64,000 nucleotides of DNA from Octopus vulgaris (Eukaryota). The position numbers and the translations under genes were made by a program. Shown one piece after another: positions 12,400-64,000 of this stretch (the stretch's first letter is position 1; each line of letters opens with the position of its first letter). A model generated the notes under the pieces. The model was given only the letters and a program-made list of their open reading frames with translations, was not told the origin of the DNA and searched no databases. Where the stretch lies: the NCBI GenBank assembly GCA_951406725.2, contig OX597814.1, positions 195,486,001-195,550,000 on the forward strand, given 5' to 3'.

Positions 12400-13811
12400 T
12401 TGCGGCCAAAATGATCAGAACGGTTGAAAAAATAACAAAATAATCAAAAATGACAGAGAATACTGGAATTATTTAATATTTAGTGTGAAGCCCTTTAGCT
12501 TCAATCACACTCTGACATCTTCGACTGCATGAGGAAATTAAATTTTCAATTTCTTGCTGGGTGATCTTATTCCATTCTTCCTGAAGGGCATTCCATAATT
12601 GCTCAGTTGTTTTAGGATTTCTGGCTTTCGAACGTTCTCCTAGAATATTCCACACATTTTCAATAGGATTGAGATCTGGGCTTTGAGCTGGCCAATCCAT
12701 AACAATAACCTTTTCAGCCTTGAGAAAGTTCATGACCACCTTAGCCTTGTGACATGGGGCATTGTTCTGCATGAATATGGGTGGTCGCTTAGTTGAATTT
12801 CTCAGCACAGGCAAGACATGATCTTTTACAAGTTGTTTATAAACTCCTGCATTTAACTTTCCATGTAATCGCACCAAAGGGCCCACACCATCTCCAGATA
12901 TCATTCCCCAAACCATGACACTTCCTCCACCGAATTTAACACTAGTCTTAAGGCATTTAGGCAACAATTTTTCACCTACTTTTCTAAGAACGTACCTTTT
13001 CCCATCTGAGTCAAATAGCATAAGCTTAGATTCATCACTGAAATGCACCGTTTGCCATTTTTCTTGAGACCACATCACATGTTCGACACTTTTTATTCTT
13101 GAAGCTGATTAGTGGCTTCACTGCAGGTGCTCTTGCTTGTAGGTCATGTTCAACTTAACGACGAGACACAGTTTTTCGAGATAAAGTTTTCTTCAATACA
13201 ATACTCATTTTCCGAGTAACAGCAGCAGCAGTTTTAAATCTGTCCTTTTTAACCAACTTTACCATAGCACGATCTTCTCTCTTGGTCGTTTTTCTTGGCC
13301 TACCTGTAAACATTCATGCTTCACACGAACCACAATCATCGTAAACCTTAAGAATACCGTGAACAACACTTTTTGACTTGTTAACAATCTTTGCAATAGA
13401 TCCAATACTTAAATTATCCTTCCTTCGAAGCTTAATAATCTGCTGACAAATTGGTAACGGAGTAAGTGGCATTATATTAACAAAGTACACTGCAAATATT
13501 CTTACTAATGTTTAGTAAACGAACCGTCACGTAAACAAATTCAAAACATTAGAGTTCGCCGGTTAAATATACTAAAACACGGAGTAAAAGCAACCGTTCT
13601 GATCATTTTGGCCGCCATGGGTTTTGCAGTAAATCCCTAAATCATCCATAACTTTTGTATTATACTCTAAAATTACACCAAAATCTCAGGCAATAACAAA
13701 TAATATTGTATTTATTGTCTGTGAAAATTATAGAATATAAAACAACTTTGATAAAAAATGATATCTACTTTTCTGACGAAAACAATGCCGTTCTGAACAT
13801 TTTGGCCGCAA

Positions 13812-27398: not shown

Positions 27399-27781
27399 TT
27401 TCTTTGCCAATATACTGAAAAATAGACACTAAATCGTCTAACCACATAAAATATTTCCACTTGTATTATTACACCACGTACCGAAACGAGGAAAAGAAAC
27501 TAACAGAATTCATAATGATATAGTTATCACCAAATAAGTTCCAATTTCTGGATTAATCCCTAAAAGATTTTTACTTCATCAGCAAAGAACACAAAAAGAA
27601 AATAAATGAAATACTTTTGGGATTAATCTAGAAATCGGAACCAATTTGGTGATAACTATAGCATTATGAATTTCTGTTAGCTTGATTTCCTCGTTTCAGT
27701 ATGTGGTGTAATAATACAAGTGGAAATATTTTATGTGGTTAGACTATTCAACGTTTATTTTTCAGCGATGTGGCAAAGAAA
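27399..27781. repeat. ~170-bp inverted duplication with a hammerhead-like core near the axis
   Basis: Arms 27399-27571 and 27609-27781; minus-strand CUGAUGAAG at 27582..UCCAGAAAUUG. Confidence 0.85.
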
Positions 27782-41170: not shown

Positions 41171-41303
41171 AAAATCTTTGGCGATTTTTTTTCTGCGTCT
41201 TCCCTTCCTTGGACCTTTCCTTTTTCTGTGATTCTGACGAAGAGCTCCGCTCGAAACGTTAAATCCTTCTTTCTTTCCTTTTCCTCAGCTACCAATAACA
41301 CTG
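41171..41303 (+). mobile_element. Short hammerhead-bearing repeat, family E1
   Basis: GAUU-CUGACGA-A-GAGC-UCC-GCUC-GAAAC-GUUA-AAUC at 41230-41265. Confidence 0.65.
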
Positions 41304-41327
41304 TCGATAGATTTCACTGAATATATA

Positions 41328-41644
41328 TATATGTTTGCGAAGGCTTGGCAGGCACCTCAGCTAGCAGGACTTACTACCCTAGACTGATGACGAGCAAGAC
41401 TCAGAAACATGTCATGTCTCTGGATGCAGTCCTAGCTGGTGGGGGTGCTTGTCTCCCCTTCGCAAATATAAGGACACAGGAAATGTATCAAAGCCGGCAG
41501 AAAGCGTCGATGCTTCCTAGGGCTAAATAGCGGTGGTGTGATTCCCTTTACGGGACTGTCACGTTGAGTTGACAGTATACAGCCACTCTATCGCTACACC
41601 ACCGCTCATATCTCTCTGAGACATTTAGAAATTTAATATTTCTA

Positions 41645-41648
<4 letters not shown>
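41328..41648 (+). mobile_element. Retrozyme-like element: rod-shaped RNA with an apical hammerhead, in (TA)n
   Basis: Nested helices TTTGCGAAGG/CCTTCGCAAA, GCAGGCACC/GGTGCTTGT, CAGCTAG/CTAGCTG and AGGACT/AGTCCT enclose the hammerhead; second hairpin AGCGGTGGTGT/ACACCACCGCT. Confidence 0.65.
41379..41423 (+). ncRNA. Type I hammerhead ribozyme, intact core
   Basis: CUAGA-CUGAUGA-C-GAG-CAAGA-CUC-A-GAAACAU-GUC-AUGU-C-UCUGG; predicted cleavage after C41418. Confidence 0.8.
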
Positions 41649-41728: not shown

Positions 41729-41913
41729 TGCAAGATTTTTTATGTGAAGTCGTGTGTTGAAACAGATATTGTTATATTTCGGAATGGTCATATTGCCAGT
41801 TTAGCCAATTAAGATTAATGTAAAAAATAAATATCACTGAAGCAAAATAACACCAAATATATAGTGCGTGTGTTTTTATTGGCTAAACTGGCAATATGAC
41901 CATTCCGAAATAT

Positions 41914-41921
<8 letters not shown>
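41729..41921. repeat. Repeat with a 44-bp perfect inverted duplication (41766-41809 / 41878-41921)
   Basis: ATATTGTTATATTTCGGAATGGTCATATTGCCAGTTTAGCCAAT and its reverse complement. Confidence 0.85.
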
Positions 41922-41961
<40 letters not shown>

Positions 41962-42056
41962 ATATATGTAGGTCCCGGGTTGAGTCGGGGTTAACCACAG
42001 TAAATAAGGTACTCAATACATAGCAGAGTAAATTAATTTATTTTATAGAAGGAGTT

Positions 42057-42144
42057 TACAGGACTAGAACTGTTTCATTCAAAAGAAATCATCAGGAAGC
42101 GCTTCCTGATGATTTCTTTTGAATGAAACAGTTCTAGTCCTGTA
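42057..42144. repeat. 88-bp perfect palindrome; each arm has a hammerhead-like core
   Basis: Axis at 42100/42101; arm reads CUGAUGA-U-UUC-UUUU-GAA-U-GAAACAG..CUGU-A. Confidence 0.9.
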
Positions 42145-42188
42145 TCCTTCTATATATATATATCAATATATATATATATGTATGTATT

Positions 42189-51249: not shown

Positions 51250-51608
51250 CATTTAAAAGAAGAAAAGGAAATGGAAATTAGGAAGTTAATAATTGTTTAT
51301 CTTTAACAACAGATTGCTTATCTTCACTTACAGCCGTTTCTATTCATACTCAATAAACATTAAATTTACATTTATGTGACATGAGGATAATATCATCAGT
51401 TTACTAAAATGAATTCATAAACATACATATAACATCCAAATGCACATCTTCTTTTCTCTGATGATATTGTGCTCATGTCATATAAATGTAAATTTAATGT
51501 TGATTGAGTATAATTGGAACGGCTATAAGAAGCGAAGATGACCAATTTGTTGATAATACTAAACAATTATTAACTTCCTAATCTCCATTTTCTTTTCTTC
51601 TTTCAAAT
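51250..51608. repeat. ~150-bp diverged inverted duplication with a hammerhead-like motif in each arm
   Basis: Minus arm CUGAUGA-UAUU..AAUA-GAAAC-GGCU-GUA (51399-51329); plus arm UUCU-CUGAUGA..GGAAC-GGCU-AUA-AGAA (51454-51531). Confidence 0.8.
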
Positions 51609-56244: not shown

Positions 56245-56741
56245 CATGGTCTGATCAATAAGTATCCGGACAGCTGCCATAGTAACGAAGTTAAAGCACA
56301 TAGAGTAAAGCCGCTTGGTACAGGTTGACCTTAAACTCTACTGTGCATGCTCACTAAGTTTTAACGTTCTAGCTCACTTCTGCCATTTACAGCAGTGCTT
56401 TGAAAGAAGGTGTGTAGCGTGTGATCGTCGCATTGACCATGACAGAGAATCTGCATCAAATGTTGCCAAAAGCTTGGCGATACCTGCTCAGAGGCCTACA
56501 CAAAGTTCTCAAAAAGTTTTCTTCGTTCTCGACACAAACAAGATCTTGCGCAACTGGAACCCGAGAGTCTTTTTGTTCAGCTGAAAGCACTTTTGACATA
56601 AACTTGCCAGACACGCGTCTCACACCCAAATCTTCAGTGATGATGGACTGAACTGAACTGTAACTAATCTGCATATCCTCTGATAACTCACGGATGGTGT
56701 TTCGGCAGTTTTCCATCACAGCTGCACATGCATCTGTGATT
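56245..56741. mobile_element. Mariner remnant with an internal inversion
   Basis: Plus strand: end TA-CATGGTCTGATCAATAAG and RICIKCCQKLGDTCSEAY; minus strand 56510-56740: TIRELSEDMQISYSSVQSIITEDLGVRRVSGKFMSKVLSAEQK. Confidence 0.8.
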
Positions 56742-56759
56742 AAAAGATGACAAAACAAT

Positions 56760-58640
56760 AAAATCAAAGAGGCTAATAAAGGGATTGAAGTTGTCTTAAT
56801 GGACACGGTATATCATATAACTCTAGTAATATCCATATTAGAAGATATAACATATTATGAAAAGGCCTAACACTACAGTCAGCAGAAAATTATGAGACAC
56901 CTAATATCCATGTTAAACATATACAGAGAAGGACTCACCGACAAAGAATATGACTATATGACGAATTTCAAAAGTAAAACCAGTCAATTCTACGGTATTC
57001 CCAAGATACACAAAACTGAGAAATTAAGTAGGATAGCCACAGACATAATAATCAAAGTCCATACTCCTAATGACTTCAAGTTGAGAACTATCATAGCAGG
57101 TCCCACATGCGAAACCCACTCCCTCAGTAACTTTTTAGATACCCTCTTAAAACCATTCCTCAAGCATGTCAAAAGCTACATAAGAGACGACCTGGATATG
57201 CTCAATCATCTTCCTGAAACAATAAACAAAAACACCCTACTAGTATCCTTCGATGTAGTCAAACTCTATTCCAATATCCCCCACAACCTAGGAATAGAGA
57301 CAATTCAGTTCTGGCTAGAGAATCACGCCAACGAACTCCCACATCGCATCAAAAAAGAATTCGTGATAGAAGGGCTAAAATTTATCTCGGAGAATAACTA
57401 CTTCGTCTTCAAAGACAACTTCTATCGACAAAAATCGTTGACTGCGATGGGTTGGAGAATGGCCCCCTCCTTTGCTAACCTAGTCATGGGATATCTAGAA
57501 ATTAGTCTTTATCGTAAGATTCTAGAAAAATACGACAGCCAATTCTTCCTCTACATAGAAAATAACTGGAAGAGATACCTGGATGACTGTTTCATTCTTT
57601 GGCATGAAAGTATAGAGAGACTTAAAGAATTTCAAGCACTTATAAATGGACTTGACGTAAACATTCAATTCACGATGGAATATAGCCATCAACATCTTCC
57701 CTTCCTCGACATCCTCATTAAGAAATCTAACAACGTAATAGAAACAGATATATTCTATAAGCCCACGGGTTCCAAGCAATATCTACCATTCAATTCATAC
57801 CATCCCAGACACACCAGAATGAATATCTCCTTCAACCTAGCAAAAAGGATATGTACTACAGTTTCTAATGCAAGCACCAGGGACACACGACTACATGAAT
57901 TAAAGGATATACCCATCACCAGGAACTACTTACCTTCATTAATTGACTTATGCTTTCAACGTGCCCTACAACTCAACGTCCACGAACTCAGGCATCTCAA
58001 ATTAAAGAAGGATTCACAACCAAAAGCCCTACCATACATCTTCACACACAACCCTCTTAACAATAAAGCCTTCGACACCATCCTTCAAAACATTCCCCTG
58101 CTAAACAAAGGACCACAGAATGAATTTAATCCTCCAAACACACACTATCATAAAAAGTCAGAGACAGCCCAAATCTATGAAAACCTCCTAACACAAGTCC
58201 AAATACGCTCAACAACAACACTGAAGGCATCAGTAAAAAAATGCGGAAGACCCAACTGTGGGATATGCATCAGTTTAATTGAGGGATCAGAGTTCTCCTT
58301 CGAACAGGGACAACGTTTCATAGTGAAAATTAGCTTCACATGTGCGTCGGAGAACCTGATATACGCACTAACCTGCTCTGGGTGTCAAGAGCAATATATT
58401 GACCAAACAAAACAGTATGCGTCAAAGGATCGCTCTGCACAGATCCCAGATCAAAATAATAAAAAAAAAGACAGAAAAATAGCCTTCAGCCAACACATCG
58501 ACGTTTGCACCAGAAGTAAAAATCCAAGCTTCAGAATTTTACCCCTCTATCAATTCAGGGACGATACAACCTTTCGCCTACGAATTAGTAAATAGTCTCT
58601 CTTTATCACTAAATACAGACCTCTTTTGGACGCATCTACA
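56760..58640 (+). mobile_element. Penelope-like retroelement (Neptune-type), 5'-truncated
   Basis: IKEANKG (DKG motif), RT core, Cys linker CGRPNCGIC, GIY-YIG-like LIYALTCSGCQEQYIDQT. Confidence 0.9.
56892..58595 (+). pseudogene. PLE reverse transcriptase-GIY-YIG endonuclease ORF (567 aa open, probably inactive)
   Basis: FYGIPKIHK, LRTIIAG, SFDVVKLYSNI, TAMG..APSFANLVMG, RYLDDCF, LPFLDI; in-frame stop at 56868, YIG changed to YID, apparent compensating frameshifts around 58110-58190. Confidence 0.85.
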
Positions 58641-58796: not shown

Positions 58797-58960
58797 GTCG
58801 ATTATATCGACCCCAGTGCGTAACTGGTGCTTAATTTATCGACCCCGAAAGGATGAAAGGTAAGGTCGACCTCGGCGGAATTGGGACTCAGAACGTAGCG
58901 GCATATGAAATACGGCTACGCATTTTGCCCGGTGTGCTAACGTTTCTGCCAGCTCCCCGC
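58797..58960 (-). mobile_element. SINE family A
   Basis: Family A match. Confidence 0.85.
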
Positions 58961-59629
58961 TTTAGTTGGAATAAATATTGCAACGCATTTCTTCTGAAGC
59001 CCTCCATGCAGTGGCGTTTTAATCAAAGAGATGCATTAATCCTACCAGATTATTTTATTACAGACCTTCACCCCATCACTCGAATAATGATGAGTAGCGA
59101 AGGAGCCTCTAGATAGCCGTTCCATCTATTAGAAATAGCAACCAAATATCCACTATTCGTACCCTACTGTTTTTAAAAACACGCAAGCTATATTCGATAA
59201 TATAGTCATAGAAGCACAGGTCCAATAAAATCCAGGTTAGTCAAAACTGGAAAGGTCTTGATCATAGGGCTGCTCGATCATTGATAGCCTTGGGTCAAAT
59301 AGCAATAACAACGGTCTAGTTATGAATTCCTGGTTGTTTTCTAAATCTGTTGAAGCATCTGGAATATTGGTTCTTAAATCTGGTCGGTTTCGTCCCCTTG
59401 ACAGCGTTGTAAGCTCACAAAGGGGCGCTACGATGGCGTTTGGTGTTTAGATGTGAACGCCATTTATGTTATGAATAAAATATTTAAATTTACATTTATA
59501 TTTTAGGCACATTAAAAAATCTTTGTCAAGATTAGAGTATGTATGAGGCATTGTGTTATCAGCAAGCAGAAACAAGGTTTTATATAATTTCATTAGATAA
59601 GCTCTCATTCAAAACAAAAAAAATCTTTT

Positions 59630-62986: not shown

Positions 62987-63121
62987 TTTCTGTGGAACGG
63001 CGTAGGCTCGAAACGTTAAAGACTTTTTCAACTCCCGAGCGTTATACTAATACATCTGTTTGTTTTCTACACCACCTGTCTTTGTCTTTAGTTTTTTTTT
63101 TTTTTTTTGTGAATTCTCTCT
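62987..63121 (+). mobile_element. Short hammerhead-bearing repeat, family E2 (degenerate)
   Basis: UUU-CUGUGGA-A-CGGC-GUAG-GCUC-GAAAC-GUU-AAA. Confidence 0.55.
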
Positions 63122-63294
63122 ATATATAACATAAGGGACTAAAGCCATCTGAATATGGCTAGGGACAGGGCAGGGTGGTGGGGGTGTTACTGTTGCATTT
63201 AGCCCCAGGCGAACATCGACGTCGCTAGATAGGCTTGACACCGTCACGGTGACCTTTAACCTGCAAAGGGAGATAATTCCCCGATGAAGCGGAA

Positions 63295-63346
63295 ACCACA
63301 CACGGACCATGGTTTCAAGGTGTATTGCCTATCGTCAACGTGTGGT
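63295..63346 (-). ncRNA. Type I hammerhead ribozyme (C3U core variant)
   Basis: CACACG-UUGACGA-U-AGG-CAAUACA-CCU-U-GAAAC-CAUG-GUC-CGUGUG; predicted cleavage between 63305 and 63304. Confidence 0.75.
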
Positions 63347-63911
63347 AGGCCTCCGCTTCCTCGACGAAATCTCACTCTGCAGGTTATTCATATATAGATT
63401 TTCAAGCAAAATACATTTGCTGATTTCGAAAATCTGTTCGACAGCAATAATAATTCTCTAAAAGAGATATAGACAGTAACTGCTCGATAACATAAGGGAC
63501 TAAAGCCATCTGAATATGGCTAGGGACAGGGCAGGGTGGTGGGGGTGTTACTGTTGCATTTAGCCCCAGGCGGACATCGACGTCGCTAGATAGGCTTGAC
63601 ACCTTCACGGTGTCCTTTAACCTGCAAAGGGAGATAATTCCCCGATGAAGCGGAAACCACAAGCCTATCTAGCGACGTCGATGTTCGCCTGGGGCTAAAT
63701 GCAACAGTAACACCCCCACCACCCTGCCCTGTCCCTAGCCATATTCAGATGGCTTTAGTCCCTTATGTTATCGAGCAGTTACTGTCTATATCTCTTTTAG
63801 AAAATTATTATTGCTGTCGAACAGATTTTCGAAATCAGCAAATGTATTTTGCTTGAAAATCTATATATGAATAACCTGCAGAGTGAGATTTCGTCGAGGA
63901 AGCGGAGGCCT

Positions 63912-63963
63912 ACCACACGTTGACGATAGGCAATACACCTTGAAACCATGGTCCGTGTGTGGT
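63912..63963 (+). ncRNA. Type I hammerhead ribozyme (identical copy)
   Basis: Same motif; predicted cleavage after C63953. Confidence 0.75.
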
Positions 63964-64000
63964 TTCCGCTTCATCGGGGAATTATCTCCCTTTGCAGGTT

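Follow-up and report, generated by a model that had tools for sequence, protein, structure and literature searches.

Pairs of short and long interspersed elements (SINEs and LINEs) share 3' stem-loops just upstream of the site where reverse transcriptase (RT) starts, and the hammerhead repeats of salamander satellite 2 and Schistosoma Sm-alpha hold conserved non-ribozyme segments acting as promoter elements. How retrozymes are mobilised in animals is an open question, Penelope-like elements (PLEs) being the favoured partner on the grounds of co-occurrence and homology. The metazoan retrozymes without long terminal repeats (non-LTR retrozymes) of coral, Mytilus and axolotl are non-coding tandem units of 350-360 nt with a type I hammerhead and a weak palindromic stem III (PMC7229834), and a review finds in such repeats no conserved motif pointing to a partner (PMC7761336). 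Retrozymes of Xenopus and other vertebrates have been related to the pseudo-LTRs (pLTRs) of PLEs and a PLE origin has already been argued, in mainly vertebrate work that relies on homology and co-occurrence and, in its available parts, names no recognition structure (10.64898/2026.07.22.740005). Poseidon PAc, a PLE of the green anole, requires in cis a stretch of its RNA (+20 to +172) that surrounds the hammerhead cut at +26 and extends 3' of it; RT starts internally, on AT-rich targets, at two sites bounding a 'tail' (PMC11167929). Inserted PLE copies are 5'-truncated, tandem or inverted, and (TA)n targets may be preferred owing to a CX2-5CxxC finger (10.1101/2021.04.23.441226). Here we analyse a 64,000-nt stretch of Octopus vulgaris DNA on contig OX597814.1 (the window, meaning this whole stretch), where two retrozyme-like elements, element 1 and element 2, carry a common RNA hairpin module.

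By unit size, hammerhead type (putative in element 2), tandem form and non-coding character, as judged from their sequence, both elements fit non-LTR retrozymes, and the module is a real, structured and conserved feature of two new families; we give a probability of about 0.5 to the reading that it is an RNA element recognised by a PLE reverse transcriptase before internal initiation. Neither the families nor the motif were found in the literature searched, including the available parts of the Octopus repeat paper PMC13282606; the supplement of PMC7229834 may show mollusc relatives. In contrast to those metazoan retrozymes, we find two diverged families with a common structured module outside the ribozyme, a coverage that falls mostly on the module and lacks this hammerhead, copies inserted in inverted form, and 3' ends at two internal sites. 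The layout resembles the PAc pLTR, in which a hammerhead is likewise followed by 100-200 nt, and the two internal start sites, the AT-rich targets and the truncated, tandem and inverted insertions, all of which are here read from copy ends, are those of PAc as well (PMC11167929); unlike PAc, the octopus retrozymes have no open reading frame (ORF), carry a canonical rather than a minimal hammerhead and match no PLE examined in sequence. They share with the Xenopus retrozymes (10.64898/2026.07.22.740005) a non-autonomous, monomer-rich condition and the coexistence with PLEs, and differ from them in that no pLTR homology was found here and in that insertion ends point to the mechanism. Compared with satellite 2 and Sm-alpha, the module covaries as an RNA hairpin and comes without RNA polymerase III (Pol III) boxes. 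SINE-LINE tails also place a conserved stem-loop near the RT start of a non-autonomous element, whereas here there is neither a transfer RNA (tRNA) head nor a terminal tail, and the starts would be internal to a tandem or circular RNA.

The hairpin module and the ribozymes

An earlier note on this DNA had singled out a box, common to two retrozyme-like elements, at 41505-41528 and 63676-63700, and both strings are found there. The pattern CGTCGATG-N3-5-CCTRGGGCTAAAT, defined after the copies had been seen, gives 4 exact matches in the window versus 0 in 100 dinucleotide shuffles; two further copies, both on the minus strand and within element 2, had escaped the note, as had the part of the module upstream of the box. 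The three copies of element 2 derive from one 361-nt unit (171/175 positions identical at period 361; inverted arms of 341 nt), so that we are dealing with two independent families and not four. Over the whole unit, elements 1 and 2 align with a local score of 93, versus a mean of 33 and a maximum of 51 in 300 shuffles, and the best score outside the two loci was 52 among 454 window segments. The two families are therefore homologous. Two further observations of the note hold as well: the box lies on the ribozyme strand in both elements (hammerhead cores CTGATGA...GAAAC...GTC at 41384-41418 (+) and TTGACGA...GAAAC...GTC at 63920-63953 (+), the latter with a minus-strand twin), and it is followed in both by a long stem and then by ATATCTCT. 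Identity between the families reaches 21/24 in the box, better conserved than any other 24-nt window of the module alignment, 17/23 in a hairpin with the letters GACAC, 25/39 in the tail and 26/45 in the hammerhead, while the rod arms, the 5' side of the module hairpin and the long stem stay at 43-57%, versus 51% for shuffled partners.

According to the folding models, the box is no linear DNA element: it makes up the tip of an RNA hairpin together with one of its strands, and with the GACAC hairpin upstream it forms one structured RNA module. In element 1 the spacer and CCT are predicted to pair with 41499-41504, and GGCT with AGCC at 41492-41495; the pair closing the hexaloop has a probability of 0.92-0.95 in whole-unit folds of element 1 and of 0.89 in element 2. 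Below this pair, inspection gives G-C, A-U and A-U in element 1 and A-U, a bulge, G-C and C-G in element 2, so read the 'variable' spacer of three or four nucleotides is a stem strand that changes together with its partner; the GACAC hairpin, in turn, shows an A-U to C-G change between the elements. As counted on an automatic alignment of three copies from two families, both partners change in 3 of the 12 pairs, and 92% of the cells pair, versus 14-53% for slid partners. The predicted fold is thus backed by covariation, and the conserved cis element postulated in the note survives as a mark of a retrozyme superfamily, though not as a linear box with a neutral spacer.

Both hammerheads were assigned by inspection of core and stems; Rfam gave nothing at gathering level and, at E<=10, either no match or matches of chance or microsatellite type, thereby missing the two of them. 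The mismatch at the base of stem II and the short palindromic stem III of both elements are as in described retrozyme hammerheads (PMC7229834, PMC4209133), the U.U at the stem II base of element 2 matching HHR_Amex2 (PMC7229834). In both copies of element 2 the U at core position 3 faces G8, unlike the published core variant, which is U3-A8 (PMC4209133), and its activity is therefore uncertain. The minus-strand piece of this element starts 4 nt behind the predicted ribozyme cut (63661, a single event), a hint that the variant may cleave in vivo and that the template may have been a self-cleaved RNA. The rod of element 2 has z = -7.5. Each strand piece inside the window holds one hammerhead, so two consecutive complete ones, the mark of an 'active' retrozyme in the 2026 preprint (10.64898/2026.07.22.740005), were not found there, and the plus arm leaves the window. 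CCGATGA...GAAA at 63642, just upstream of the plus-strand box, is the antisense of the rod rather than a ribozyme core.

The longest stop-free stretches measure 69 codons in element 1 and 85 in element 2, in frames that differ relative to the box, and a coding remnant was on this account rejected as its source; that of element 2 (at least 85 codons, 63305-63661 (-)) begins in hammerhead stem III and is taken as chance. A 14-nt direct repeat around element 1 was dismissed as a target-site duplication, contigs carrying the unit to 41313; for element 2, the far end falls beyond the window. The string TGGTGGGGGTG occurs at 41437-41447 (+), on the ribozyme strand of element 1, and at 63176-63186 (+), on the opposite strand of element 2, probably by chance.

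Table 1. Position in the window of the features discussed, with the basis of each assignment or a remark
Feature	Position	Strand	Basis or remark
PLE-type end with minimal hammerhead, cut ~55 nt short	41197-41302	+	joined directly to element 1 in the same orientation, no TA tract between
Element 1, near-complete single unit (family ~353-355 nt)	41303-41646	+	back-joints in contigs
Rod carrying the hammerhead, element 1	41334-41467	+	z = -5.8; 0/200 shuffles
Type I hammerhead, element 1	41379-41423	+	inspection; predicted cut after 41418; C.A mismatch at stem II base; palindromic stem III
GACAC hairpin, 6 bp, purine-rich pentaloop	41473-41489	+	also in element 2
Whole module hairpin	41492-41524	+	AGCC/GGCT base, small internal loop, 7-bp upper stem (41499-41505 with 41512-41518)
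Box, element 1	41505-41528	+	exact pattern match
Closing pair and GUCGAU hexaloop	41505-41512	+	folding; C41505-G41512 closes the loop; letters CGTCGATG
3' strand of module hairpin	41513-41524	+	folding
AAAU linker to long stem	41525-41528	+	folding
Long multibranched stem	41529-41606	+	structure kept; sequence 48-50% to element 2
TATCG, complementary to the hexaloop	41589-41593	+	copies end after 41591 in (AT)n
ATATCTCT small hairpin and A/T-rich tail	41608-41646	+	main 3' end ~41643-41646, then (TA)n
PLE ORF, endonuclease-positive (EN+), 5'-truncated, frameshifted	56712-58640	+	RT, Neptune-type CX4CX2C finger, GIY-YIG-like domain
Look-alike of the 3' half of the box	59288-59303	+	hairpin foot ~650 nt behind PLE ORF, SINE between
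PLE-type end	62988-63125	+	(TA)n tail contains the 3' end of element 2
Element 2, minus-strand piece (361-nt repeat, 1.48 units)	63126-63661	-	3' end at TAT/CG in (TA)n
Box copy with full module, element 2	63197-63221	-	exact pattern match
Box copy with full module, element 2	63558-63582	-	closing pair probability 0.89
Inverted arm of element 2	63660-64000	+	head-to-head joint via 2-nt overlap; runs off the window
Box copy, inverted arm of element 2	63676-63700	+	upstream GACAC hairpin missing at the junction
Putative type I hammerhead, element 2	63914-63959	+	predicted cut after 63953; twin at 63299-63344 (-)

The families in public contigs

The element 2 unit is present in 20 of the 24 listed sequencing runs (9 studies, 6 organism labels), none of those listed with it being recorded as RNA, which says nothing on expression. 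Four of these runs were mapped on element 1 at 80% likeness, yielding 3257, 2301, 1631 and 56 contigs, and the element 1 family is clearly very abundant. The summed depth in the box bin and in the hammerhead bin of the three large runs was 398,005 versus 6,127, 143,162 versus 3,196 and 84,347 versus 1,838, the module being 45-65 times as deep as the hammerhead in contig depth, which is not copy number; single contigs listed in the large runs have depths of ~3-60. The box bin was the deepest of 30 in three of the four runs and the fifth in the remaining one. Because of this excess of module over this hammerhead, enrichment of the motif within 150 nt of hammerheads, the check proposed by the note, may fail without refuting a function. 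The step in depth at 41440-41460 may reflect either the absence of the hammerhead from most copies or rods that differ by more than 20% from that of element 1; loose contig ends show an (AT)n junction at 41466 and a different hammerhead variant at 41438.

Variants were taken from the best 40 of 79 rows, with pairing counted over the module helices and not the rod. Two private mismatches of element 1 are repaired in the family: at 41487, in the GACAC hairpin, the family reads G, restoring C-G, in 99-100% of depth, and at 41501, in the upper stem, it reads G, restoring G-C, in 97-100% of depth in 4/4 runs. Altogether, 5 of the 6 module-helix variants listed keep or restore pairing. T41528 reads C in 40-73% of depth in the four runs (40-65% in the large ones), and with the loop variant at 41508 considered below the box is thus not invariant. 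Back-joints from 41643 to 41325 (with 34 additional letters) and from 41646 to 41313 (with 21) give units of 353 and 355 nt.

Some further variation was noticed in the same contigs. Stem III of the element 1 hammerhead (41408-41415) is highly variable: a form shorter by 5 nt accounts for 23-63% of depth in the three large runs, and loops of other palindromic sequence are present too. At 41539 loose ends keep the box and continue into C-rich sequence like that of element 2, and before 41455 others show a different GC hairpin; judged from these letters, both would represent further subfamilies with the module. The box motif had 0 matches in viral contigs and 14 loci in metagenome contigs, where no credible hammerhead was found within 250 nt upstream (1 loose core match); for that reason these loci were discarded as relatives and taken as chance.

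Copy ends and a proposed Penelope-like partner

Truncated, tandem and inverted insertions, as well as TA targets, are seen in the retrozyme loci and contigs. Element 1 copies fall in depth into (TA)n at 41643-41646 (419,018, 116,640 and 24,830 over the last three bins of run X16), and in 19 contigs of the same run the unit breaks off at 41591 and (AT)n follows; element 2 has its 3' end (63126) at the site matching 41591, TAT/CG, likewise in (TA)n. Neither of these ends is the ribozyme cut, behind which they lie by 173 and ~228 nt; the corresponding starts would be ~55 nt apart, versus the tail of 30-40 nt in PAc (PMC11167929). A strand change occurs in 10 of the 15 joints listed (17 in all), each joint being one contig per run. 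By analogy, this pattern of ends and inversions resembles PLE priming. Moreover, the window holds six PLE-type ends with minimal-hammerhead-like cores (41250 (+), 63007 (+), 33194 (-), 28510 (-), 26071 (-) and 21013 (-)) which belong to two families; four of them end in (TA)n, and each retrozyme element stands directly behind one. The joint at 41302/41303 could result from one RT having switched its template from one RNA to another, or from an insertion with a deletion.

A mechanism can be proposed in which, by analogy with known retrozymes, the unit would be transcribed by read-through as a multimer, cut by its hammerhead and perhaps circularised. The RT-endonuclease of a (TA)n-targeting PLE, whose identity we infer, would bind the module, 55-230 nt downstream of the cut; its endonuclease would nick AT-rich DNA, and RT would begin internally, at two positions immediately 3' of the module. 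Copying would run back through the module and would often stop early or join a second complementary DNA primed on the other strand, leaving truncated, tandem and inverted copies, all of them retaining the module. Since RT would start just 3' of the module, each new copy would keep it whether or not the hammerhead was reached. The GUCGAU loop is self-complementary over six bases (two G-U pairs) and also complements UAUCG at one start site. It is tempting to speculate that the hexaloop docks on this site, thereby fixing the point from which copying starts, or pairs two RNAs loop to loop; in the latter case a dimeric PLE protein could prime both strands of one break, and head-to-head inverted insertions would thereby be explained. 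We regard this extension as improbable, and a GUUGAU subfamily weakens it. If true, it would give animal retrozymes their first defined structure for partner recognition, by means of which SINE-like derivatives devoid of a ribozyme would have come to outnumber the circles.

The PLE ORF of the window, which is 37-43% identical to its best full-length relatives and has a SINE in its 3' flank (58797-58964), is a candidate for the class of partner. The note had also pointed to a weaker look-alike of the box near 59290, close to a SINE-like end. It is present at 59288 with 2 mismatches to a tailored 16-mer (0.05 expected) and is one of 32 non-exact matches at <=3 mismatches, of which 21.9 are expected by chance; the likeness is weak and homology is unsupported; a distant homologue at this place seems unlikely. 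No link to a SINE end was found. In three of six PLE loci from other hosts a minimal-hammerhead-like core is followed by a short tail ending in TATATA, and no PLE relatives were found in viral contigs. The occurrence of GGGCTAAAC in the abundant SINE was rejected as a link and taken as coincidence, since 7 of 8 copies have it in antisense orientation to the SINE head.

Several observations weigh against recognition of the module by a PLE. Neither the window PLE nor the six loci from other hosts were found to share sequence or structure between their pLTRs and the retrozymes: the elements aligned with the 656 nt behind the window PLE at scores of 25-33, versus 29-37 for shuffles; the covariance model called for by the note, once built, gave 15 matches at E<=10, none behind the window PLE and the look-alike at 59288 not listed; and the module was not found in the six other loci (5 with 3' flank), where the best E of 0.048 fell on an ORF end. 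The retrozyme ends share ~3 nt with (TA)n, whereas the anole PLE primes without target homology. The depth and joint counts carry the limits given with them. As for the fold, the base of the element 2 hairpin has a predicted probability of 0.15, versus 0.74 for GGGGCUAA pairing with the downstream UUAGUCCC, and forcing the module fold costs 1.8 kcal/mol; a fold of element 1 that begins at its cut site lowers its module hairpin to 0.45, and the hairpin does not form in the inverted arm of element 2, which is truncated at the 5' end. The covariation, with only two families compared, is not significant (40/500 shuffles reach it), and shuffled gapped alignments have a best 24-nt window of 17 on average and once of 22. 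Finally, the listed variant 41596 breaks a long-stem pair, and loop C41508 reads T in 54, 21, 19 and 5% of depth in the four runs, a loop change at the level of a subfamily.

Other features of the window were recorded on the way. It is AT-rich animal DNA (35% GC) with many microsatellites and SINEs, the latter presumably akin to octopod SINEs. A degenerate hammerhead-like core, ATGATGAG...GAAAT, lies at 59085-59135, ~170 nt upstream of the look-alike, and TTATGTTAT at ~59463 resembles that of element 2; the two could be remains of a decayed third family. Self-inverted elements of fold-back type, or resembling miniature inverted-repeat transposable elements, occur at 41766-41917, 42029-42150, 27399-27781 and 51251-51608, and a DDE_3 transposase fragment at 12476-13108 (-). 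Animal PLE ORFs appeared in four bacterial genome bins (L015-L020), most likely as host contamination.

Alternative roles and significance

Among the roles that the note had offered for the box, namely RT recognition, priming, ligation and transcription, the first seems the best. The same conservation and covariation would also fit a module that serves the circle itself, in its closure by a host ligase, its protection from nucleases, its export or the binding of a host protein, with RT needing only A/U-rich starts; retrozyme RNAs are circularised by an RtcB-type ligase in vitro and accumulate as circles (PMC7229834). However, ~55-110 nt separate the module from the ligation junction, a junction held by the rod, and in both families the ends of insertions are grouped just 3' of the module, which makes such a role rather unlikely in our opinion. 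Internal promoter elements exist in newt satellite 2 (small nuclear RNA type) and in Schistosoma Sm-alpha (tRNA type), and a box read as double-stranded DNA could act likewise: short invariant blocks at near-fixed spacing would suit a DNA-binding factor, and a reference title speaks of conserved domains in the satellite 2 of salamanders. However, changes in the spacer go with pairing changes in its upstream partner, the units hold no tRNA and no exact Pol III A or B box (one-mismatch matches only, both strands), and retrozymes seem to lack promoters according to the available parts of a review (PMC7761336), all of which leaves a promoter decidedly unlikely; a Pol III promoter or a tRNA-derived SINE was discarded, exact A and B boxes and a tRNA-like head not being found.

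It could further be argued that both families descend from one pLTR-derived ancestor and that the box is the least-drifted stretch, devoid of any specific function, as the comparison of only two families, the shuffled windows mentioned above and the variants inside the box would allow. That the box and the GACAC hairpin keep 74-88% amid neighbours that are mostly close to shuffle level, that the private pair-breaking mutations of element 1 are restored in the family majority and that depth peaks at the box in three of four runs speak against drift, which we consider improbable on balance. A second self-cleaving ribozyme, or a switch controlling the hammerhead, is highly improbable: the invariant loop and the complementary downstream UAUCG could form a pseudoknot, and element 2 has two folds within 2 kcal/mol, but the rod folds independently, no Rfam match appeared at E<=10 (Rfam misses the hammerheads too), and a relaxed descriptor of the hepatitis delta virus (HDV) type never assigns the box loop to L3 and also gives matches in 10-13 of 15 shuffles. 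An HDV-like fold was accordingly rejected, a nested double pseudoknot with the loop as L3, P1 and P1.1 not being found.

Recognition by a PLE reverse transcriptase is thus the reading that we retain at the probability given above. A module kept by two near-saturated families, together with the mapped ends that adjoin it, is a direct substrate for the existing in vitro PLE assay. It also provides a structural marker for finding and classifying such repeats and, if the proposed recognition is correct, would help to define the RNA recognised by the telomerase-related reverse transcriptase of PLEs.
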